From: Nitrosopumilaceae archaeon
GTDB taxonomy: Archaea > Thermoproteota > Nitrososphaeria > Nitrososphaerales > Nitrosopumilaceae
DNA length: 28,843 bases
Assembly (NCBI GenBank): GCA_052389415.1
Contig: JBQTHX010000016.1
Coordinates: 1 to 28,843, forward strand
Direction of reading: 5' to 3'
Positions 62 through 20,051 of this stretch are shown here, piece by piece. Each line of letters begins with the position of its first letter. Position 1 is the first letter of the stretch. A program made the position numbers and the translations under genes. The notes under the pieces were generated by a model. The model made no database searches and was not told the DNA's origin. It was given only the letters and a program-made list of their open reading frames with translations.

Positions 62-2296
62 TTGGCTCACACATTCAAGGATAGTAACATAGTGGAATCA
101 AGGTCTGGTAGACTACTAAAGCTAACCATAGGTGTATCACTTATCACTCTATTTCTTTCAATTCTCACTCTGGTGACTATGGTATATTTTGGAAACTTTG
201 ATGGGAATCTAAAGTGGAATGCATATGGAATCGAATATGATCAAGCTGGCCAAATAATTTCATGGCTTGTAATGGGGATAATAGGAGGTTTTGCAATCTC
301 AGTAATACTTGGAATTTCCTATCTTGTAGTAAAAAAACGAAAAAGGGTTCCACAAAAAGATCAAAAACATGCGACTTTTCCATTAAATAATTCCGTAAAG
401 CCTTCGCCACCCGCAACAAAACCACAGGCGCCAATAGTAAACTTTGGAATAAAGACAATAAGTGAAGAGATAGCTACGGCAAATGCTCAAAAACAATCCG
501 CATTTTCAGAACTGACACAGATAAGATTCCAGATCGAGTCTTCAAGAACAAAACTCTTGGAGCTAAACTCACAGATAGAAAAGGCTCAAGCTGAGCTAAC
601 TGCTGTTCAAAAACAATCTTCAAGAAGAGATACTTTGAAAGAAAGAAGCTCAGAAATTGAACTGGCAAAGACAAAACTTTCGGATCTAAACTCACAGATA
701 CTAAAGGCACAAAGTGAGCTGGACTCTTTGCATAACCAGTTTTCACAAAAAGATGATGCTGTATCAGAGCTCAAAAAGACAAGATCAGAAATCGAGTCTG
801 CCAAAAAAAATCTCAACGGCCTAAACTCTCAAGTAGAAAAGACAAAATCCGATCTAGAGTCATTGAACAAAGAATTTGCCCAAAGAAAAGCTGAGATGTC
901 TGAACTTACTCAAACAAGAACACAAATCGAGTCTGCAAAGACTAGTCTCTCTGACCTAAATTCACAGATTGAGGCTGCAATAAGCGAATCACTTAGCTCA
1001 TTACAAGCTCAATATGACCAAAAGGACGCAGCTGGAAAGGATCTGGCAGAAACATTGTCACAGATGGAGGCATCCAAGAAAAAGATAGCTGACCTAAACT
1101 TGGAGATTGAAAAAGCAAAATCAGAACTTGATTCATTGCAAAAACAATATGCTCAAAAAGACGAAGCAGTAAAAGAACTCTCCAAGACACTCTTGGAGAT
1201 TGATTCAGCTAAGACAAACCTTGTTGAATTGAATTTGCAGATAGAAAAAGCAAAAACCGATCTAGACTCCCTACAAATACAATATTCGGAAAAAAATAAA
1301 GATCTCAACTTGCAGATAGACAAGGTAAAAACTCAACTAGAATCACTGCAAAAAGAATATGAACAAAAGGAAGCCATGTCATCAGATCTCTTACAGACTA
1401 GAACACAAATAGAGACTGCCAAGACAAACCTTGCTGAGCTAAACTCACAGATAGAAAAGACCAAAGCAGATATAGATTCACTACAAACGCAATATTCACA
1501 AAAGAATAAAGAACTAACTTTACAGATAGACAAGGCAAAATCAGAATTAGAGTTTCTACAAAAACAATATTCACAAAAAGACAAGGTCGTAGAAGAGCTG
1601 GAACATACCATGTCACAGGTTGAAGTGGCAAAAACAAAATTAACTGAATTAAACTCGCAGATAGACTCTGCAAACTCAGAGCTGGATTATTTACAAAAAC
1701 AATGTTTGCAACGAGATGCTGTTGTTGCTGAACTGACACAATCACGACAACAAATAGAATCTGCAAAAGCAAAACTGGCAGAGCTTATTTCTCAAATAGA
1801 TAGCGCAAAGGCAGAACTAGGCTCACTGGAGACTGAATTTGAGCATAAAGATGAGGTGGCCTCTGAACTAAAACAATCAAGAACACAAATCGAGTCTGCC
1901 AAGAGAAATCTTACGGTTCTTAACTCACAGATAGAAAAGGCAAAGTCTGATCTTGCATCCTTGCAGGAACAGTATTCTCAAAAAGAAGTAATAGTATCGG
2001 AATTGGCTCTGACAAAATCACAAATTGAATCGGCAAAGACAAATCTAAGTGATCTATTCACTCAGATTGATGAAGCCAAAGAAGATCTTCAATCCATACA
2101 AATTCAATATGTTCGCAGACAGGAAGATATCGTAACAGCAAAAAAAGAGCTTGAATTTATAGGAAAAGAACTATCAGTGCTCAGCCAGAAAGGATATCGA
2201 AAATCAAAAGAATCAGCATTGGATGAAAAGGATATTCAGAAAGGAATGGATAAACGTAGACTGGAATTCTTTAACTATCTGGCACAAAGACGGTAA
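62..2296 (+). CDS. membrane-anchored coiled-coil protein built from ~45-aa tandem repeats
   Basis: 744-aa ORF. The N-terminus has two hydrophobic segments (LLKLTIGVSLITLFLSILTLVTMVYF and IISWLVMGIIGGFAISVILGISYLVV), followed by a Pro-rich linker. After that come heptad-like units resembling ELTQTRTQIESAKTNLSDLNSQIEKAKSELDSLQKQYSQKDxxV. The start is uncertain: TTG at 62, first ATG at 179, which would remove the first hydrophobic segment. Confidence 0.6.
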   Translation: MAHTFKDSNIVESRSGRLLKLTIGVSLITLFLSILTLVTMVYFGNFDGNLKWNAYGIEYDQAGQIISWLVMGIIGGFAISVILGISYLVVKKRKRVPQKDQKHATFPLNNSVKPSPPATKPQAPIVNFGIKTISEEIATANAQKQSAFSELTQIRFQIESSRTKLLELNSQIEKAQAELTAVQKQSSRRDTLKERSSEIELAKTKLSDLNSQILKAQSELDSLHNQFSQKDDAVSELKKTRSEIESAKKNLNGLNSQVEKTKSDLESLNKEFAQRKAEMSELTQTRTQIESAKTSLSDLNSQIEAAISESLSSLQAQYDQKDAAGKDLAETLSQMEASKKKIADLNLEIEKAKSELDSLQKQYAQKDEAVKELSKTLLEIDSAKTNLVELNLQIEKAKTDLDSLQIQYSEKNKDLNLQIDKVKTQLESLQKEYEQKEAMSSDLLQTRTQIETAKTNLAELNSQIEKTKADIDSLQTQYSQKNKELTLQIDKAKSELEFLQKQYSQKDKVVEELEHTMSQVEVAKTKLTELNSQIDSANSELDYLQKQCLQRDAVVAELTQSRQQIESAKAKLAELISQIDSAKAELGSLETEFEHKDEVASELKQSRTQIESAKRNLTVLNSQIEKAKSDLASLQEQYSQKEVIVSELALTKSQIESAKTNLSDLFTQIDEAKEDLQSIQIQYVRRQEDIVTAKKELEFIGKELSVLSQKGYRKSKESALDEKDIQKGMDKRRLEFFNYLAQRR
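500..2160 (+). repeat. in-frame tandem repeat, ~135-bp (45-codon) unit, roughly a dozen diverged copies
   Basis: The protein blocks QIESAK(T/K)NL..LNSQIEKAK(S/T)(E/D)L(D/E)SLQ(K/E)QY(S/A)QK(D/E) recur at 45-aa spacing, with a few half-length units (KNKDLNLQIDKVKTQLESLQKEY). Boundaries are approximate. Confidence 0.7.
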
Positions 2297-2464: not shown

Positions 2465-2911
2465 ATGAATAAAAAAATTCTTGCAGCAATTTCTGTAGTA
2501 TTTGCAGCAGGCATTCTTTTAGTGGTCTCGCCAAGTGCACTAGCAACTGAAGAAAAAAAGGCATGCACACCAGGTTACTGGAAGAATAACACTGACACAA
2601 ATGGCTGGGACAGTCTAGACAGTTTAGATCTTCAAACCGAAGTACTAAACATCACAGGACTTGATCTTGGACCAGATGCAAATATCACATTAGCAGAAGC
2701 TGTGGCACTCAAAGGCGGAGGACAAAATGCAGTCTTTAGATATGCAGCTGCCGGTGTATACAACACACTTGCTGGCGTAGGATATCCACTAGATTGGTTT
2801 ACCGAAGCAATACAGAGATTCCTTGATGGAAACACATCTGGATCAATTGAAAAATTTGAGTTGATAAGCTCACTTGGCTGTCCAATTGATGCATTTGGAA
2901 GAACTATCTAA
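2465..2911 (+). CDS. small secreted protein of unknown function
   Basis: 148-aa ORF with an ATG start. It has a signal-peptide-like N-terminus (MNKKILAAISVVFAAGILLVVSPSALA) and Cys residues near both ends. No family recognised. Confidence 0.6.
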   Translation: MNKKILAAISVVFAAGILLVVSPSALATEEKKACTPGYWKNNTDTNGWDSLDSLDLQTEVLNITGLDLGPDANITLAEAVALKGGGQNAVFRYAAAGVYNTLAGVGYPLDWFTEAIQRFLDGNTSGSIEKFELISSLGCPIDAFGRTI

Positions 2912-2918
2912 TCTAAAC

Positions 2919-2942
2919 TAGTCCTTATCGGACTAATTTTTT
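2919..2942. terminator. hairpin plus T-run between the secreted-protein gene and the left casposon junction
   Basis: tagtcc (2919-2924) pairs with ggacta (2930-2935) across the 5-nt loop ttatc, and T6 follows at 2937-2942. It lies 8 nt after the stop at 2911. Archaeal termination commonly uses oligo-T. Confidence 0.4.
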
Positions 2943-2958
2943 ATTCTTTATCGATAAA
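2938..2958. repeat. left copy of target-site duplication (orphan copy of the aEF-2 3' end)
   Basis: tttttattctttatcgataaa at 2938-2958 is identical to 20031-20051. The reverse complement of ttattctttatcgataaa reads F-I-D-K-E-stop, the C-terminus of the aEF-2 ORF. Here it is detached from any ORF. Confidence 0.85.
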
Positions 2959-2994
2959 AATAGAATCCCCCTCAATTACGCCTAAAAATCTGCA
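2956..2994. repeat. left terminal inverted repeat (TIR-L)
   Basis: Sequence is aaaaatagaatccccctcaattacgcctaaaaatctgca. The reverse complement of 19997-20035 is aaaaatagaatccccctcgattacgcctaaaaatctgca, giving 38/39 identity. Weaker similarity continues about 11 nt inward (8/11). The outer A/T run overlaps the direct repeat, so the exact TIR/TSD border is ambiguous. Confidence 0.85.
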
Positions 2995-3262
2995 CATCGT
3001 CGTAATTGATTTATTCTCAAAAAACAAGAGTTACTGATCTCAACTGAATAAGAATGATGAAAAGTTTCAAAAAAGGTTAGCTGCTTATCAAATCGGAGCC
3101 ACTGCGTTTATCGCAATTGCTTCAGTTATCATATCCTTAGGTATTGTATTTACTCAGTTTGAAATTCTTCCAATAGATTCTTCATCAATTGATAATTCAA
3201 CCAGTAATAAAATACAGACCTGGACGAGTTCGGTTAGAGAAAGTGGTCAGACTCTCATATAT

Positions 3263-3649
3263 TTGGGCTCCGGATGGGTGATTGCTGGCATGGTTTTTTT
3301 CATGGTCCTAACTCTAATAGATAAATCAAAATCTAAGTTTAACAAATCTCGGAAAATAGTTCTTGTTGATGAAATGTATGATGGAAAAGACATAGAATTA
3401 GAGAAAAAGGGCTATGATGCATTTAGTGTAAAAAAACTTCGACTTAAAGGCGAACCGCTTCAATATGACTACTCAGTTTTAAAATATGTCGAAGAAAATA
3501 AAATGATCCTAATTACCGAAGATCCTGAGAATTATGGAGGTTGTCAAGAAAACAATCTTCCTTGCATTAAACTAGGACAAAATCCATCAATTGAAGAAAT
3601 CGTAAAAGAACTAGAATCTTTGAAAACAGAACATGACTCTAAAAGATGA
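3263..3649 (+). CDS. membrane segment plus PIN-like (DUF5615/Mut7-C-like) domain protein; possibly the 3' part of a frameshifted longer gene
   Basis: The C-terminal pattern KIVLVDEMYDG...GYDAFSV...DYSVLKYVEENKMILITEDPENY resembles the LLDENLP...G.DV....D.EIL..A..E.RILVT.D.DF pattern of small PIN-like domains. The frame is open upstream to 3038 with no ATG/GTG/TTG before 3263. Confidence 0.45.
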   Translation: MGSGWVIAGMVFFMVLTLIDKSKSKFNKSRKIVLVDEMYDGKDIELEKKGYDAFSVKKLRLKGEPLQYDYSVLKYVEENKMILITEDPENYGGCQENNLPCIKLGQNPSIEEIVKELESLKTEHDSKR

Positions 3650-3697
3650 TTAAAATCTACATACTTTTGTAAATTAACTTGTAGAAAATATTGATAA

Positions 3698-4123
3698 TTA
3701 TTGATAACAGGAATACCCATTTAATTTCTTTCTTAGAAGTTTTATAAAACCAAGAATTCCTATCATGATTCCCATCGATGCACCTATCAAACCTAGGGCA
3801 AAAATTGATGTGAAATGACCAAAAATTGATGCTTCATTATAAGTAAGATGAGGCGGAGATACTAACGCCGGAGTTACAAAGGGCCAGATAAATCCTGTGA
3901 GTTTATAGATATTTGCATTTCCTTCCAAACATACGTATGCTAAGTAAGAACTAACTAAAATTGACCCCAGACAGATGGTAAAAGAGATAAATTTTCTGGT
4001 TCCCAATTTTTGGGACAAATCATAGAGGAGTTTTAGACTGTTTAGAAGGAAAACTACAATTGCGAGATAATCTTTGATATCACTAATTCCTGGAAATCCA
4101 CTGAAGCGAATTGGGAAATTCAT
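3698..4123 (-). CDS. integral membrane protein (about 4 hydrophobic helices), unknown function
   Basis: 141-aa ORF with an ATG start and several 20-aa hydrophobic stretches. Confidence 0.5.
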   Translation of the reverse strand: MNFPIRFSGFPGISDIKDYLAIVVFLLNSLKLLYDLSQKLGTRKFISFTICLGSILVSSYLAYVCLEGNANIYKLTGFIWPFVTPALVSPPHLTYNEASIFGHFTSIFALGLIGASMGIMIGILGFIKLLRKKLNGYSCYQ

Positions 4124-4444
4124 TGATTTAATTTAAGGTTCTTCGGGTTAATAAAAATTTCACTAGATAAATTAGGATGAGATTAAACATAATCACGTAC
4201 CTTCAACATACTTGCAAGATGTTCCTTATTTTTTAGAACTATCCTTATTAGATTGATGTTGATACTTCTAATGTTGGACAATCAGCTTGTATACACCGTG
4301 ATTGGAGGAGTATTAGGTGGAATAGTAAAAACAATTTCAGATATGACAGTAGAATGGTTCAAAGAAATTCAAAAAAAATTATTAAAAGTGTAACAATAGA
4401 TGACACTTTTGAATTAATAAATTGTGAACTGTGACTCATGTTAA

Positions 4445-4828
4445 ATGAAGAGCAATAACAGATATTTTGGGAAATGGAATCAGGGCACAGGAATTACCAT
4501 GCCTGAAAGATTTTTAACAATTTTAGAATTTCAGAAAGATGGAAAAAAAGTAAAAGATAAACAAGGAAAAGATGCAGAAGTTTTGATCTGGTTAAACTCA
4601 AACAATGATATAGAAATAGCAAATCAGATATTGCCAAGAAAAAATTTGAATGGCATTGTTATTCAAAATCATTCCATAACAGTTCGTAGCAAATCATATG
4701 GAATAATAATTCCATACTCAATCATTCAAACCTACAAATTATTGAATAGAAAAGTCGTCGGATTTACAATTACCTGCAATGAATTTAATCATCTTGTTTT
4801 TCTTCCTCTTGAAAAAAGACACAAATAA
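4445..4828 (+). CDS. hypothetical protein
   Basis: 127-aa ORF with an ATG start. The N-terminal TGITMPERFLTIL weakly recalls AbrB/SpoVT-type swapped-hairpin motifs, which is not enough for a call. Confidence 0.45.
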   Translation: MKSNNRYFGKWNQGTGITMPERFLTILEFQKDGKKVKDKQGKDAEVLIWLNSNNDIEIANQILPRKNLNGIVIQNHSITVRSKSYGIIIPYSIIQTYKLLNRKVVGFTITCNEFNHLVFLPLEKRHK

Positions 4829-4829
4829 A

Positions 4830-4837
4830 TTTAAATA
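4830..4837 (+). promoter_or_regulatory. archaeal TATA-box-like element upstream of the RHH gene
   Basis: tttaaata lies ~35 nt upstream of the ATG at 4869. A ggtga SD-like element sits at 4862-4866. Confidence 0.35.
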
Positions 4838-4868
4838 GCACCATTGGTGTTAATTAATCTATGGTGAA

Positions 4869-5126
4869 ATGATGCAACGGATGAGCATTACGTTGGATGA
4901 TAATATTGCTAGAACACTAAGAGGAATACAAGGAAGATTAATTGAGAAATTTGAAAAAGACATTAGTTTTACAACCATTGTGAATACAGTACTTCTAGCA
5001 GGAGTTATTGGTACAGAAAGTTTTACAGAAAAAACGTGGACACTACTAAGTCAGTTTCTACATGAAGAGCAAATCAATCTGGATAAAGAAGGCCTTACGG
5101 ATAACTTTGTTAATCAACTAAAATAA
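4869..5126 (+). CDS. ribbon-helix-helix (CopG/Arc-like) DNA-binding protein, putative
   Basis: The N-terminus MSITLDDNIARTLRGIQGRLIEKF fits a beta-strand then helix RHH pattern. It is small (85 aa). Confidence 0.5.
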   Translation: MMQRMSITLDDNIARTLRGIQGRLIEKFEKDISFTTIVNTVLLAGVIGTESFTEKTWTLLSQFLHEEQINLDKEGLTDNFVNQLK

Positions 5127-5127
5127 T

Positions 5128-5430
5128 CTAATCAAAAAGAGACCTCTGGATCTTTTTTCGTAATCTCCCATTATTAAAAATATGATCTAATAGAGCAATT
5201 GTACCAACAAACAAAACTCCTGCTCCAAGTTTACTTTCAGACACATGTTTGTACAACGAAGTTGGAGATTCGTACGGGTCATGTTCATCATAATGAATGT
5301 TACATAACCTAGTATTTGGATCACATTCTGCGTGCCAATGACCATTTCTAAAATGGATCATTCCAAGTTTTTCTCCTAATGAAGGAGTCCATGTAGGATC
5401 GTTTTCAAAATCTTCAATTCTATAACTCAT
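5128..5430 (-). CDS. hypothetical protein with C-terminal hydrophobic segment
   Basis: 100-aa ORF with an aggtga SD-like sequence 7 nt upstream of the ATG (reverse complement of 5438-5443). It is co-oriented with 5456-5704. Confidence 0.5.
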   Translation of the reverse strand: MSYRIEDFENDPTWTPSLGEKLGMIHFRNGHWHAECDPNTRLCNIHYDEHDPYESPTSLYKHVSESKLGAGVLFVGTIALLDHIFNNGRLRKKIQRSLFD

Positions 5431-5455
5431 GATATATCACCTATAATAATGAGAG

Positions 5456-5704
5456 TTATCTCTGAAAAGTTTTGTTATCTCTTCCAAAATTTTGTCCAAT
5501 ATAATCAGCAAATGATTTTTCAGCACCAATGCGTAAAATACTGCCTAATTTCCCAATTCCTTGATCGCTAGAAGATTCAACAATTCCACCAATAATCCAA
5601 GTAAAAAATTGTCCTCCTAATCTATTGTAATTACCGTTAAGATCTTTTTCTGGCAACTGATTAAGTTTGTTCCTTATCACATCACTAGGTTCATTTTTCC
5701 CCAT
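5456..5704 (-). CDS. hypothetical protein
   Basis: 82-aa ORF. A TATA-like tttaaata on its strand lies ~30 nt upstream. Confidence 0.45.
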   Translation of the reverse strand: MGKNEPSDVIRNKLNQLPEKDLNGNYNRLGGQFFTWIIGGIVESSSDQGIGKLGSILRIGAEKSFADYIGQNFGRDNKTFQR

Positions 5705-5729
5705 GTTGTTATCTCTATTATTTTGCAGC

Positions 5730-5737
5730 TATTTAAA
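5730..5737. promoter_or_regulatory. symmetric TATA-like element in a divergent promoter region
   Basis: The plus strand reads tatttaaa and the minus strand reads tttaaata. It lies between divergent starts at 5704 (-) and 5775 (+). Confidence 0.3.
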
Positions 5738-5774
5738 CGTGCAGATTTGCAAATCCACGTTATATCAACATATA

Positions 5775-5996
5775 ATGTTTTTAAGACCATCGTTCGTGAT
5801 GATCTTAATGGTAACTGTTAGATGTGAAAATATAAATCCGATGTATTGGGCTTGGGTAGCAGAATATGCACGAAAAAGGCGAATAGAAAGATGCAAAGCA
5901 TTAGAAATGATCATAGAGGAGCATATGAAGTTCACAAAGAGAGAATATGAAAGATCATTAGAGGAAGGACTAATTGCCAAGAAAAAGAAGAAGTAG
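5775..5996 (+). CDS. small RHH-like protein, putative
   Basis: The tracked ORF 5667-5996 overlaps the start of 5456-5704. The internal ATG at 5775 follows the TATA-like element. NINPMYWAWVAEYARKRRIERCKALEMIIEEHMKF fits a strand-helix-helix layout. Start choice is uncertain. Confidence 0.35.
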   Translation: MFLRPSFVMILMVTVRCENINPMYWAWVAEYARKRRIERCKALEMIIEEHMKFTKREYERSLEEGLIAKKKKK

Positions 5997-6171
5997 AGAA
6001 GACGACTGGATTGAAGATCTGTTGAAATTGGGATTGGGTGTACTAGCCATATCTTTTCTTGCAAAATTAGCTGAAGGAACACAACAGGTTACAATATGCC
6101 CATATTGTAATAGCAAAATCGGAAAATTTGCTAGAACCTGTCCTAATTGTAGGAATACCTTAAATTTATAA
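5974..6171 (+). CDS. membrane-associated zinc-ribbon protein
   Basis: CPYCNSKIGKFARTCPNCRN is a CxxC...CxxC ribbon, preceded by the hydrophobic LLKLGLGVLAISFLAKL. The only available start is TTG, and it overlaps the previous ORF by 23 nt in an A-rich run. Confidence 0.45.
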   Translation: MPRKRRSREDDWIEDLLKLGLGVLAISFLAKLAEGTQQVTICPYCNSKIGKFARTCPNCRNTLNL

Positions 6172-6258
6172 TTACAGTCAAAATACCTTCATCATTATTT
6201 TAAATTAATATCATTGAATCAAGCTAAACCTCTTTAGTAGCAAGAGAGTTGTAACTTC

Positions 6259-7941
6259 ATGGCAAATATTTCGGAACATTTCCCAACTGATTTTCAACCT
6301 AGGCCCATCCAGAACGAGATCTTAAAGTATATTCAATCACAAATAGATTCTGGATTTAAAACAATAATTCTTTCAGCACCTACAGGAGTAGGAAAATCAC
6401 TCATAGCAGCAACTTTGGCCCGATATTTTGGTAGTTCTTTTATAGTTACAGCCTCAAAGCATTTACAGGATCAATACATAAAGGATCTTCAATTTCTCAA
6501 ACCTGTTAAAGGTAAATCAAATTTTCCTTGCCTCAAACTCATGGAGCATGAGAAGGTAAAAAGCGAACAAGTGGCCTTGCAGAAAGGATTAACTTGTGAA
6601 AAAGGAGTTTGCCAAGAAACAAAAGAAAAAAAGGGAAAAAAAGTAATAGAAATTTGTAAATTTAAACCAAAGATAGAAGAGTGCGTTAACGATCATTCTG
6701 ATGATGGGTATTGTCACTATTATAAACAGAAATATCTTGCACTCAATTCAGATCATTCTCTATGGAATTATTCTTCATATTTTCAGTTAATGAAATTTAG
6801 CAGAGATGTTTTTGCTGATTATATTGATAGACCGGTTGCCATTTTTGATGAAGCCCACAAAATCGAAGATCAAATAATACAATTTGTTGGAATCGACATA
6901 TATGATGGAAATTTAAGAGAATGTGGTATTGATGTAAAAAGCTATGCACTAGACAACATTGATCTTGTGGCACAACTAACTGAAGATCTCGCATTATCAT
7001 ATGCAAAACAACTTAAAGAGATTAAAAAAAGTAGATCTTTTCTTAGAAATCCAGATTATAGAATAATTGCAAAACTTGAAGGTAAGTATGACCGTATGAT
7101 AAATGCAAGTATCGAAATAAAATCAAATAAAGATAATTTTATCATTGATGAACCTAAAAAAGATGATAGGGGTAATTTCAAATCTTTATCGATCAAACCA
7201 CTTGATATTTCAAAATATGTAGGTTCACTTTTTGATATTCCCACTAGAATTTTCATGTCTGCCACAATTGACAAAGATAGTTTTTGTGAGAACACAGGAA
7301 TAGCACTCTCGGAGGTTGCTTTTGTTGATACTCCAAAATCACCATTTTTGCTTGAAAATAGAAGAGTGAATTTTCTAGATGTGAGAAAATTAAGTCAAAA
7401 ATCAAGCGAGGATGATGAATTAACAGTCATAAGAAAAATTGACGAAATATTGACAAAGCATTCAAAACAAAGAGGTTTGATCCTGACCTCTTCAGAAAGT
7501 AGATGTCATAGAATAAGAAATAATCTCTCACCACAAAATATGAAGAGAATTAGAATATGTCATAGCATGAACCCGAATGGAAAAACACAAGATCAGATAT
7601 TGCAAGAACATTACAAGGATGAAACAGGAGTATTGCTTTCATCTTCGTTATGGGAAGGTGTTGATTTAAAGGATGATCTATCCAGATTTCAGATTATTGC
7701 AAAGACGCCATATCCTGGTCTTGGTGAAAAAAGAGTTAAAATTAAAATGGAAAAATACCCTTTATGGTATAAATCACAGACAATAATGAAGTTGTTACAA
7801 GGTCTAGGTCGTTCAATTAGAAGTGAAAAAGACTGGGCCATAACATATGTCCTTGATTCTGCAGCTCTTGAATTACTGAATCGATCAAAGTCAATGATCC
7901 CAAAAGCATACTATGATATTTTAGGATGGAAAACTAACTAG
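6259..7941 (+). CDS. XPD/Rad3/DinG-family DEAH-box helicase with Cys-rich insert
   Basis: Walker A is LSAPTGVGKS and the DEAH box is IFDEAHKIED. The element KGKSNFPCLKL resembles GR.NY.C, and further Cys residues (CEKGVC, EICKF, EECV, GYCHYY) lie between motifs I and II, where XPD/DinG carry the 4Fe-4S cluster. The C-terminal motifs are SSSLWEGVDL and QGLGRSIRSEKDWAITYVLD. Confidence 0.8.
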   Translation: MANISEHFPTDFQPRPIQNEILKYIQSQIDSGFKTIILSAPTGVGKSLIAATLARYFGSSFIVTASKHLQDQYIKDLQFLKPVKGKSNFPCLKLMEHEKVKSEQVALQKGLTCEKGVCQETKEKKGKKVIEICKFKPKIEECVNDHSDDGYCHYYKQKYLALNSDHSLWNYSSYFQLMKFSRDVFADYIDRPVAIFDEAHKIEDQIIQFVGIDIYDGNLRECGIDVKSYALDNIDLVAQLTEDLALSYAKQLKEIKKSRSFLRNPDYRIIAKLEGKYDRMINASIEIKSNKDNFIIDEPKKDDRGNFKSLSIKPLDISKYVGSLFDIPTRIFMSATIDKDSFCENTGIALSEVAFVDTPKSPFLLENRRVNFLDVRKLSQKSSEDDELTVIRKIDEILTKHSKQRGLILTSSESRCHRIRNNLSPQNMKRIRICHSMNPNGKTQDQILQEHYKDETGVLLSSSLWEGVDLKDDLSRFQIIAKTPYPGLGEKRVKIKMEKYPLWYKSQTIMKLLQGLGRSIRSEKDWAITYVLDSAALELLNRSKSMIPKAYYDILGWKTN

Positions 7942-17489: not shown

Positions 17490-18572
17490 TCATGTGTAAT
17501 CTGGCAATTGATTCACATTATTTTCTAGTTTGGCAATCTCGACGACTTGACTCTGATCGAGAATAGGTTGAAAAGCCTTAGTTGGTTTATCGTCCTGTCT
17601 ATTGATTTTCATCCAGAACAAAATCTGATACGAATCGTTTATTGTATCTATTTCTTTTTTTATAAATTCATCTTTGATTCTATCAATATGTTTCCAGATA
17701 AGACCTTCGATAGATTTAGTTCCAACACTGTGAAGACCCTGAAAGATGAAAACATCTCGCTCTGGTCTGTTTCCAGCATATCTTATTCTATTAGGAATTT
17801 TTGTTAAAACGGCATATTCTTCATCAATTTGAGAATTATTATCAACCTGTGGGCTCTTTGGCAAGTCAGATTTTTTTGTATCGTAAAATAGGTACCGAAA
17901 TTTTGTGATGTGCGGATCAGGTAGTACAGTATCCCCTCCAATATCTTCGATTTTTTGTTTTACCTGTACAGGATCGTTATAGTCAATTTCAAATTCCCAT
18001 CTTAGTATTCCCTTGTATCTGTCACTCAAAAATAATCTGTCATCGCCTTTGATATCATATCCAAGAGCTTTCTGAGAAGTTAATGTGGATTTTGCACTGC
18101 CTATTGCTAATATGTTTTCTGCTAAATGGGCATCCTCTAACTTACAATTATCCGTACTTAGTGTTTTGATATCCTCAAACACATGAGTACCTGTTGCCTT
18201 TGCTATGTTTCTAATAATCGGCAGATTAAGGAACCATTTGTTGACAAGTCGCCTTACCGCCTCTTTGTTTCCTGGATGAATGAAGTTTTCAAACTGTGGA
18301 TGTACATACCCAGGATCACATACTACATTATGTAAATGTGAAAAATAACTATCAACTAATTGTTGTTTTCTCCTACGATTCATGATATGATCTATCAATC
18401 TTTCTACACCTGCTTCAACACCTAGAGGAATATTAGGAATAAATTCACCAGTTGTGAAATTAATCATAGTATTTTCTAGGTTTCTGTATATCGGAATTGG
18501 ATCAGGAATAAAAAAGTATTTTTTAGATGAATTAAAGCCGAAGACGCACCTAGAAAGGTCAAATGGTATCAA
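17490..18572 (-). CDS. hypothetical protein (360 aa), directly downstream of cas1
   Basis: Long ORF on the same strand as Cas1, with a 51-nt gap. The C-terminal EYAVLTKIPNRIRYAGNRPERDVFIFQGLHSVGTKSIEGL looks like an alpha/beta strand-loop-helix element. No family recognised. Confidence 0.6.
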   Translation of the reverse strand: MIPFDLSRCVFGFNSSKKYFFIPDPIPIYRNLENTMINFTTGEFIPNIPLGVEAGVERLIDHIMNRRRKQQLVDSYFSHLHNVVCDPGYVHPQFENFIHPGNKEAVRRLVNKWFLNLPIIRNIAKATGTHVFEDIKTLSTDNCKLEDAHLAENILAIGSAKSTLTSQKALGYDIKGDDRLFLSDRYKGILRWEFEIDYNDPVQVKQKIEDIGGDTVLPDPHITKFRYLFYDTKKSDLPKSPQVDNNSQIDEEYAVLTKIPNRIRYAGNRPERDVFIFQGLHSVGTKSIEGLIWKHIDRIKDEFIKKEIDTINDSYQILFWMKINRQDDKPTKAFQPILDQSQVVEIAKLENNVNQLPDYT

Positions 18573-18623
18573 TTATTATTTATTTACAGAATTGTGTGAT
18601 AAAAACAGATCATTCAGCTGTAA

Positions 18624-19709
18624 TCAATTTTGTATAAGATTTATCATCACAATACAATAATCAGCTAAATTTTGTATTGTAATCTTTACTATAGTAATTT
18701 CTTGACACATTGACATTCCATTAGACATTTTCAAACCATGCTTAAACTTGTATGGTCTTTCTGCCTGAAATTTCCTTTCTAATATTTCCAAGAATCTTTT
18801 AATTAAATCCGAATCAAGTACCACTTTTCCTTCTCTTGTCCACGCATATTCATTTTTCTTAATGGACTGATCATAATTTTGATGATTTGCAACTTTATAC
18901 ACCGAATATTCAACTAACCACCTAAAAGGTTCAATCAAGTCATACACTAGAGCCTGAAACGAAGTGTGAGTTCTATGATAAAATCCATAGTAAGGATCTA
19001 AACCTAATCCATTCACAAACTTGGCAATTTCTCCTGCTAGTACAGTATAGCCATAATTGAGAAGCGCATTAATCACATCTGAAGCATATCTATTGGATAA
19101 CCTAATTCCACCACCATGGCGAGATTCAAACATATACTTTGGATCAAAGAGTTTAGCATAATTATTGAAATAGATATGTCCACATCTTGATTCTGTAGTT
19201 AGAAAATTACGATATTCTGTAAAATTCTCTACTTGTTTTAGATATAGTTCTAGTTGTGAAATTCCTTTCTGTAAATACTCTCTTTCTAAAGATTTTAGGA
19301 AATTAATCTGACTGTTTAATTTTTCAGTTAAAATCCATTTTCTAAGATACAGAACTTTGTCAGGATCACGAAATGTATCATACTGACCAATTCTATATCC
19401 AGTTGCTGTAGTACTAGACATTACATTATTCATATTAGAAATTAAATTCCCAAATGTGTCAGTTAATATTACATTGACATTTTTCTCAGAAAGTAGTTTT
19501 ATCGCATCTGTAGAAACATAACCACGACCAGAAATCACAATTTTTTCATAAGGGATCTGAGTAACAAACCATTCTTCCTTTTCAGATTTGTTTGATAAAA
19601 CATCTAATCCATTTTTTAAAATAACACGATTATCCTTTAGATGAATGGCTACTCCATAGCCACGAAGTAACTTGATGTTATAGTGATTTTTGTGCCCCTT
19701 TAGAGTCAT
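18624..19709 (-). CDS. cas1: Cas1 homolog without CRISPR context (casposase)
   Basis: The N-terminus is LRGYGVAIHLKDNRVILKNG. The conserved Glu context is TTESRCGHIYFNNY. ASDVINALLNYGYTVLAGEIAKFVNGLGLDPYYGFYH carries the catalytic His context. ALVYDLIEPFRWLVEYSV matches the D/E..EpFR motif. Length is 361 aa. Confidence 0.92.
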   Translation of the reverse strand: MTLKGHKNHYNIKLLRGYGVAIHLKDNRVILKNGLDVLSNKSEKEEWFVTQIPYEKIVISGRGYVSTDAIKLLSEKNVNVILTDTFGNLISNMNNVMSSTTATGYRIGQYDTFRDPDKVLYLRKWILTEKLNSQINFLKSLEREYLQKGISQLELYLKQVENFTEYRNFLTTESRCGHIYFNNYAKLFDPKYMFESRHGGGIRLSNRYASDVINALLNYGYTVLAGEIAKFVNGLGLDPYYGFYHRTHTSFQALVYDLIEPFRWLVEYSVYKVANHQNYDQSIKKNEYAWTREGKVVLDSDLIKRFLEILERKFQAERPYKFKHGLKMSNGMSMCQEITIVKITIQNLADYCIVMINLIQN

Positions 19710-19953
19710 GTTTTACCTTTTTCAAGTATTTTTTCTCTAAGGCATTTACGTAATCACTGTATGCAAGAATCAATTTTGTCATTGTTTCCACCACTGGAGT
19801 CAGATAGTGAAACGAATCGACTAGCGGAGTTGTTGAATTACCAGCAAGTTTAGCCTCTGTACTTTTTGTATTCCACGTGCTACATTTTTCTAAAAAATCT
19901 ATCTTACGTTTCTTGAGTTCTTCTCTTAGATCTTCTAACTTTGTTTGAATCAT
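19678..19953 (-). CDS. small helical protein at the casposon end, upstream of and overlapping cas1
   Basis: 91-aa ORF with an ATG start. Its 3' end overlaps the cas1 start by 32 nt, and it begins ~45 nt inside the right TIR. Confidence 0.45.
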   Translation of the reverse strand: MIQTKLEDLREELKKRKIDFLEKCSTWNTKSTEAKLAGNSTTPLVDSFHYLTPVVETMTKLILAYSDYVNALEKKYLKKVKHDSKGAQKSL

Positions 19954-19996
19954 ACTTCATTGAATGATATTTTAAACAAAATACTTTACGAGGACA

Positions 19997-20035
19997 TGCA
20001 GATTTTTAGGCGTAATCGAGGGGGATTCTATTTTT
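19997..20035. repeat. right terminal inverted repeat (TIR-R)
   Basis: tgcagatttttaggcgtaatcgagggggattctattttt is the reverse complement of 2956-2994, with one mismatch. Confidence 0.85.
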
Positions 20036-20051
20036 ATTCTTTATCGATAAA
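20031..20051. repeat. right copy of target-site duplication (functional 3' end of aEF-2)
   Basis: Identical to 2938-2958. Here it is continuous with the aEF-2 ORF (stop codon at 20034-20036 on the minus strand). Confidence 0.85.

Follow-up and report, generated by a model that had tools for sequence, protein, structure and literature searches.

Casposons of Thaumarchaeota have repeatedly been found at one protein-coding target. [quoted passage not shown] A further case followed (PMC4779613, 2016), and ef-2 was later recognised as the most common target of thaumarchaeal casposons, with two casposons arranged in tandem in Ca. N. adriaticus NF5 and one integrated at ef-2 in Ca. Nitrosotalea devanaterra (PMC6563490, 2019). 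Tandem insertion and solo TIRs are also known from Methanosarcina family 2 casposons and from one Nitrosopumilus genome (PMC4779613, PMC6563490). The casposase of strain AR1 integrates specifically into the reconstituted site (PMC6614799, 2019). Dissection of this site revealed that the apparent 22-bp repeat (GTTT + 13 + 5) holds a true TSD of 13 bp, ATTGATAAAGAGT, and that integration needs leader TTT, spacer AAA and, within the 13 bp, A1, A11, T13 and ATAA as a ruler at positions 5-8; the TIR 3' motif is TTCTA (PMC8464041, 2021).

The window, that is the whole 28,843-nt stretch of Nitrosopumilaceae DNA analysed here, comes from an ammonia-oxidising archaeon and carries an element which we assign to family 1 (thaumarchaeal, protein-primed PolB) casposons, integrated site-specifically at the 3' end of the gene for aEF-2, an essential translation factor, according to a 13-bp TSD model. 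We put the probability of this reading at roughly 0.88. Since its gene set, architecture and host match the definition of family 1 (PMC4046053), the element adds a member to a family already described, and its site is also of a known kind. A sequence-only reading of the window had mentioned earlier reports that thaumarchaeal casposons target the aEF-2 3' end, and this is indeed published (PMC4046053, PMC4779613, PMC6563490, PMC6614799), with the target dissected in vitro (PMC8464041). It had further singled out the aEF-2 3' end as a mechanistically interesting, leader-like Cas1 target; the site is real, but it has already been studied in that respect (PMC8464041). The window thus offers a clean new example of known biology and no new mechanism. 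Repeat, TIRs, gene content and intact aEF-2 were read directly from the window, and their coordinates are listed in Table 1.

Table 1. Features of the casposon locus, in order of position in the window
Feature	Position	Strand	Basis
Left host flank gene, 148 aa, no family match	2465..2911	+	ORF list; convergent with aEF-2 in reconstructed empty site
Small hairpin TAGTCC-ttatc-GGACTA	2919..2935		read from sequence
Left (distal, orphan) copy of 21-nt repeat	2938..2958		reverse complement FIDKE*K
Distal copy of inferred 13-bp TSD (ATCGATAAAGAAT in aEF-2 sense)	2943..2955	-	homologous to AR1 TSD ATTGATAAAGAGT (PMC8464041)
Whole casposon, 17,080 bp	2956..20035		gene content and flanking repeats
Left TIR, tip AAAAATAGAATCCCCC	2956..3007	+	inverted-repeat search; TIR profile from relatives
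DinG/XPD-family helicase (cargo or replication accessory)	6259..7941	+	Pfam Helicase_C_2, ResIII, DEAD_2
Protein-primed-type family B DNA polymerase PolB	8473..10356	-	PF03175 DNA_pol_B_2 (organellar/viral, protein-primed type), E 2.4e-29
Conserved small gene directly upstream of PolB, overlapping PolB start	10353..10772	-	homologues beside PolB in L058 and L045
DUF4062 + NACHT/STAND NTPase (defence-like cargo)	12327..14174	+	Pfam domains; weak Avs2 and PDC-M54A matches
HEPN-domain protein, 311 aa (cargo)	16391..17326	-	PF05168, E 2.6e-10
Cas1-family casposase, 361 aa	18624..19709	-	PF01867, E 9e-48, residues 18-311
Right TIR	19983..20035	-	inverted-repeat match; TIR profile
Right copy of 21-nt repeat, true aEF-2 C-terminus	20031..20051		
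aEF-2 gene, intact, 730 aa	20034..22226	-	
Proximal copy of inferred 13-bp TSD: codons I-D-K-E and stop T	20036..20048	-	junction reading

The element is bracketed by a perfect direct repeat of 21 nt, TTTTTATTCTTTATCGATAAA, whose only copies in the 28.8-kb window, with up to two mismatches allowed, are the two that the sequence-only reading had reported. In reverse complement the repeat translates as F-I-D-K-E-stop-K. Its right copy closes an ORF of 730 aa ending in ...PNADEFIDKE*, which contains the full EF-2/EF-G domain set and scores 851 bits against the NCBIfam equivalog TIGR00490 (cutoff 738) across the full profile. No ORF of at least 60 aa reads through the left copy. The right copy is thus the true aEF-2 C-terminus and the left one an orphan, as had been proposed. 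The element sits at the aEF-2 stop codon and leaves the gene intact. Over its last 249 residues the protein is 95% identical to sequences from Nitrosopumilaceae MAGs, the closest matches being Nitrosotalea-like MAGs.

It might be objected that a repeat which lies in an AT-rich region and ends in homopolymer runs arose by chance and is unconnected with any insertion. We consider the probability of this negligible. Among 100 dinucleotide-preserving shuffles not one contained even a single match to the repeat, none being expected by chance, and the two copies enclose TIRs and a complete casposon gene set, an architecture that recurs in dozens of related loci.

Inverted repeats abut both 21-nt copies directly on the inside. 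With 2956 and 20035 taken as first bases, the two arms agree at 38 of their first 39 positions and at 46 of 53. A TIR profile (nhmmer) has only two matches in the window, with model position 1 at base 2956 and a start also at 20035; the profile was built from relatives' sequence starting right after the 13-mer, so this register is set by construction. GC content is 31.2% in the element and 38.5% in its flanks.

Tyrosine/serine-recombinase integrative elements of Thaumarchaeota typically enter the 3' ends of genes and are flanked by short direct repeats (PMC6563490). The 21-nt repeat could therefore represent the att core of such an element, with Cas1 and PolB as mere cargo, and the interior does hold several ORFs lacking a family match (among them 283 aa and 360 aa) that leave room for a recombinase. 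This alternative is highly improbable. No tyrosine/serine recombinase or integrase domain was detected in any ORF tested in the window, the repeat is abutted by long TIRs, which att-type elements lack, and Cas1 adjoins the same kind of TIR in several relatives examined. A tRNA target was rejected too, as the window contains no tRNA gene.

The casposase scores 138 bits against NCBIfam TIGR00287 cas1 (cutoff 71.7), and no second Pfam domain beyond PF01867 was detected in its 361 residues. Among solved structures, the best relative is that of the casposase from Methanosarcina mazei (6OPM). Alignment to this 431-aa protein stops at chain residue 277, and the C-terminal part of 6OPM has no counterpart in the window Cas1. 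The Cas1 sequence recurs with 100% identity in an NCBI MAG annotated as a Nitrosopumilaceae archaeon and is 63% identical to Cas1 of N. evergladensis SR1. An ORF of 360 aa without a match adjoins the gene. Neither a CRISPR-like repeat family nor any other cas family was matched in the window, the DinG-like helicase aside.

The small gene that overlaps the PolB start is 53% and 52% identical to homologues adjoining PolB in L058 and L045, respectively, and has no Pfam match. In this position a candidate terminal protein has been proposed (PMC4046053). From the literature we infer that the element is replicated by its own PolB.

The remaining recognisable genes might be cargo. The helicase matches PADLOC typeIV_DinG (type IV-A CRISPR-associated DinG) over nearly the full profile (E 2.6e-63); it passes no NCBIfam cutoff, and its Csf4 match is weak. 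Searches with PADLOC and Pfam and for repeats found no other type IV genes and no CRISPR array in the window. A defence-like cargo block extends over 12327-17326 and comprises the STAND NTPase, an overlapping 741-aa protein with a sub-threshold HEAT match only, and the convergent HEPN protein.

Assignment to family 1 thus draws on several features found together. Cas1 lies outside any CRISPR array and is compact, without the C-terminal HTH of family 2; PolB is of the protein-primed type. Three to four small genes are reported upstream of pPolB, of which one was checked and is present. TIRs (38/39) accompany a 21-nt repeat containing a 13-bp core, and the host is thaumarchaeal (Nitrososphaeria).

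We compared the locus with described elements. NitAR1-C1 and NitSJ-C1 (Ca. Nitrosopumilus koreensis AR1 and Nitrosopumilus sp. SJ; PMC4046053) likewise have Cas1 without HTH, protein-primed PolB and TTCTA TIRs, and occupy the (a)EF-2 3' end within a repeat of about 22 nt whose 13-bp core (ATTGATAAAGAGT, against ATCGATAAAGAAT in the window) lies between TTT and AAA. Unlike NitAR1-C1, the window element carries two substitutions in the 13-mer and resides in a non-marine-looking Nitrosopumilaceae host, with aEF-2 closest to that of Nitrosotalea-like MAGs. The AR1 casposase is not among the best 120 matches of the window Cas1, which reach down to 63% identity. NitDev-C1 (Ca. Nitrosotalea devanaterra, locus L058; PMC6563490) shares target gene and polarity, with Cas1 beside aEF-2 on the same strand. 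Identity to the window counterparts is 70% for its Cas1, 62% for its PolB and 53% for the small gene upstream of PolB. It differs in the target 13-mer (GTCGACAGCGAGT), leader (TAC), TIR type (AAAAATGGTTTACCCCC) and cargo, NitDev-C1 being reported with an OLD nuclease.

Resemblance extends to more distant systems. Family 2 casposons (Methanosarcina, Aciduliprofundum; PMC4779613, PMC6614799, PMC6977970) also integrate site-specifically by means of Cas1, right at the 3' end of a conserved gene that is not disrupted, and form tandem arrays and solo-TIR remnants at their preferred site, as found at aEF-2 in relatives of the window. In contrast to the window element, they use tRNA genes or intergenic targets, duplicate about 14 bp and have a C-terminal HTH and an RNA-primed-type PolB. 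Tn7 at attTn7 downstream of glmS, the analogy drawn in PMC4046053, similarly exploits the conserved 3' coding end of an essential gene that stays intact, and elements accumulate at its site; unlike the window element, Tn7 employs the transposase TnsABC+D, has a 5-bp TSD and encodes no polymerase of its own.

We then considered how much of the 21-nt repeat is duplicated target. Read in the sense of aEF-2, the proximal junction is GAA-TTT / ATCGATAAAGAAT / AAAAA-TAGAATCCCCC and the distal junction is GGGGGATTCTA-TTTTT / ATCGATAAAGAAT / AAAAAA-TTAGTCC. The 13-mer differs from the AR1 TSD only by T3C and G12A, that is at 2 of 13 positions. A1, ATAA (5-8), A11 and T13 are all retained, as are leader TTT (GAA TTT / ATCGAT...), spacer AAA (the distal flank after the orphan 13-mer is AAAAAATTAGTCC) and TIR motif TTCTA, in agreement with the sequence requirements described for the NitAR1-type site (PMC8464041). 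In the window alone, a duplication of 21 bp or of 13-19 bp is indistinguishable from one of 13 bp combined with mimicry by the TIR tips. This ambiguity arises because the host leader is itself TTT and the host spacer A6. Symmetric partitions had been calculated to give a TSD of 13 to 19 bp; the arithmetic is correct, the range being set by how the shared A/T run is assigned. The predicted empty site, GACGAATTTATCGATAAAGAATAAAAAATTAGTCC, is the same under either border model and equals the earlier reconstruction. Its junction in sequence form is GACGAATTTATCGATAAAGAATAAAAAATTAGTCCGATAAGGACTAG.

Relatives proved more informative. L078 and L080 represent an empty and a filled state, agreeing at 298 of 301 positions upstream and throughout the first 79 positions downstream. 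In the empty site (L078:1848-1863) the sequence is GAATTC-ATCGACAAAGAGT-GAACATC, and aEF-2 stops with TGA. In the filled site ATCGACAAAGAGT is present at both ends and nothing more is duplicated (L080:6736-6751 and about 11719), so that exactly 13 bp were duplicated in this pair. At the proximal junction, ...GAGT-AAAAATGG, the stop codon has changed from TGA to TAA, with AA contributed by the element tip. The insert of L080, 5 kb long, is probably composite, as its two TIRs are of different types, but the junctions keep their value as evidence.

A second line of evidence comes from loci whose leader is not TTT. In L039 (two junctions), L063, L066, L068, L080, L044 and the flipped copies of L060 and L065, the 13-mer follows a host codon TAC or TTC. 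At all nine junctions every TIR-flanked internal or distal copy of the 13-mer is preceded by T4-6 and not by the host bases. Several of these elements end in GGGGGATTCTA-T5, like the window element. From the empty/filled pair and these nine junctions, together with the start of the TIR profile at 2956 and 20035, we assign 2943-2955 and 20036-20048 to the TSD, and 2956-20035 to the element. The true duplication is thus most likely 13 bp, in our estimation with good though not overwhelming confidence, and the extra TTT and AAAAA of the 21-nt repeat most likely come from T5/A5 TIR tips. The earlier view that the TSD/TIR border cannot be fixed is superseded by this comparison and by the in vitro work, both of which indicate 13 bp. 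These data provide support from natural genomes for a 13-bp TSD previously known from in vitro work alone, and they show element tips completing the host stop codon.

The same casposon might instead have entered the same site through a staggered cut of 21 bp (or 14 to 19 bp), in which case the whole repeat would be TSD and the element would end in TAGAA/TTCTA. The 21 nt are perfectly identical, earlier papers gave the AR1 repeat as a 22-bp TSD (PMC6614799; PMC8464041), and TIR substrates used in vitro ended in TTCTA-3' (PMC8464041). In addition, the natural AR1 repeat of 22 bp has as its first base a G (GTTT) that a T5 tip leaves unexplained, so that it fits tip mimicry less neatly. Nevertheless, we judge a longer duplication unlikely, since AR1 integration mapped in vitro to 13 bp (PMC8464041), the L078/L080 pair duplicates exactly this length, T4-6 replaces leader bases at the nine TAC/TTC junctions, and the TIR profile begins at 2956 and 20035.

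Under the 13-bp model, insertion might proceed as follows, with stagger and recognition rules taken from relatives and from published AR1 biochemistry. The Cas1-type casposase of the element would bind the TIR ends and recognise the target ...GAA-TTT / ATCGATAAAGAAT / AAA..., consisting of a leader ending in TTT, the 13-bp core and a spacer starting with AAA; within the core, the ATAA ruler at positions 5-8, A11 and T13 would serve as recognition features. The two 3' ends of the element would then be joined to opposite strands 13 bp apart, and gap repair would duplicate these 13 bp. The aEF-2-proximal A5 tip would complete the stop codon, with T from the host and AA from the element, while the distal T5 tip would recreate TTT ahead of the orphan copy. 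Because of these A5/T5 tips, the apparent repeat would be stretched to 21 nt and both copies would resemble valid targets. The aEF-2 protein itself is left unchanged.

This requires one amendment to the sequence-only reading, according to which the duplication regenerates the last five codons and the stop of aEF-2. Four codons and the T of the stop would indeed be restored by the duplication proper. As judged from relatives and in vitro work, the Phe codon would never be cut, and the AA of the stop would be provided or re-provided by the TIR tip.

We looked for an empty allele in the lineage of the window and found none. The exact protein sequences of aEF-2 and the left flank gene were recovered on filled contigs only (Logan SRR34758885, SRR34758886), and the alleles found for this lineage, from two sequencing runs and one MAG, are all filled. 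The corresponding check on a related lineage, the L078/L080 pair, did succeed. A degenerate pattern exclusive to the empty site had no match in JGI metagenomes. Searching the same metagenomes with flank proteins yielded four loci, in none of which aEF-2 was detected; L084 alone among them carried the sequence of a casposon junction, in which TIR-like sequences lie on both sides of a 13-mer copy, like those of L008. In L089, a Cas1 that is 71% identical to that of the window is encoded just downstream of aEF-2, a TIR-like tip follows straight after the aEF-2 stop, and the upstream host gene order is the same.

Occupancy of the site was surveyed in 80 aEF-2 loci (L001-L080) from one-genome-per-species archives, of which 75 could be scored for the tip. 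A TIR-like tip (A4-7 followed by a C-run) directly after the T of the aEF-2 stop is present in 62 of these 75 species-level Nitrosopumilaceae, Nitrosotalea and Nitrosotenuis loci; the same pattern occurs at only 4.6% of other TAAAA sites in the loci. Several of the 13 exceptions are visibly degraded TIRs, and only about five sites look clean, two of them with TGA or TAG stops. These data suggest that the site is occupied in most related species sampled, which bears on how casposon target sites could become CRISPR repeats. A literature search found no report of such pervasive occupancy at aEF-2, which is weak evidence of novelty and no proof of absence.

We also asked if the TIR-like sequence after aEF-2 might be a conserved host-encoded motif, for example a terminator. 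This was rejected, as inverted partner copies flanked by 13-mers exist, Cas1 genes or fragments follow in 20 loci, one empty/filled pair is available and the motif is matched at so few of the other TAAAA sites.

Few of these loci appear to hold complete elements. A full-length Cas1 match within 6 kb is found in only five (in L065 it is split across reading frames), and about fifteen have only Cas1 fragments, mostly N-terminal stubs. Most of the occupied loci examined have decayed to remnants, which in some cases form tandem arrays. Of the 80 contigs, about 25 break off less than 1.5 kb downstream of aEF-2 or still within its final codons, a pattern consistent with breaks in assembly or binning at a mobile element.

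Arrays of the type TIR-T5 / 13-mer / A5-TIR were found, in positions relative to the aEF-2 stop, in L008 (+484), L010 (+3202, +4215), L039 (+1281, +2889), L063, L066 and L068. In L080 (+4971) the distal TIR-T5 / 13-mer abuts the host flank directly. Up to three elements or remnants are stacked in one array. Since flanking TIRs are often of different types, these arrays are better explained by decayed tandem insertions than by matched miniature elements. In L060 (+2719), L064 (+1918) and L065 (+4100) the target lies in reverse complement between back-to-back TIRs, exact in L060 and L065 and degraded in L064. The flipped orientation suggests, as the simplest explanation, inversion through the flanking TIR palindrome.

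Taken as a whole, the survey allows a tentative interpretation, to which we give somewhat less than even odds. The aEF-2 3' end of sampled Nitrosopumilaceae may be a near-permanently occupied, self-renewing landing pad. A5/T5 tips would rebuild TTT-13mer-AAA on both sides, and successive casposons would stack into TIR-13mer-TIR arrays, of which solo TIRs and Cas1 stubs are left after decay; between back-to-back TIRs, the 13-mer could also flip. The window would then represent a rare fresh and intact insertion into a clean site. If true, the proposed casposon-to-CRISPR transition would have a living analogue in such a natural array, with its conserved 13-bp 'repeat' beside a fixed 'leader'.

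aEF-2 is not a universal target, as already noted in PMC6563490, since L087 and L088, which encode close relatives of the window Cas1, have no aEF-2 within 10 kb. In L088 (9868-9944), the TIR beside a Cas1 72% identical to that of the window is preceded by about 25 nt resembling the aEF-2 3' end (..PEEFIDKE*). This junction may represent an array fragment that has moved elsewhere, or else a mimic of the target. In L087, also far from any aEF-2, two TIRs stand back to back with a 13-mer in reverse complement between them.

With its two TIR matches only, the window shows a single clean insertion. The element is apparently intact, 17 kb long, and comes from an uncultured soil or freshwater-type Nitrosopumilaceae lineage. 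Owing to its identical TSDs, near-perfect TIRs and defence-like cargo, it lends itself well to being compared biochemically with the AR1 enzyme.

The host spacer, which runs from the left flank gene's stop (2911) to the orphan TSD (2943), measures just 31 nt and holds the hairpin listed in Table 1; the TIR profile revealed no older casposon remnant in it. A 63% homologue of the flank gene lies downstream of aEF-2 in L008. Further upstream, a host flank gene at 62-2296(+) encodes a 744-aa coiled-coil protein with 8-11 copies of a degenerate 135-nt (45-aa) repeat at 60-76% identity, and a 58% homologue of this protein is encoded in L084.
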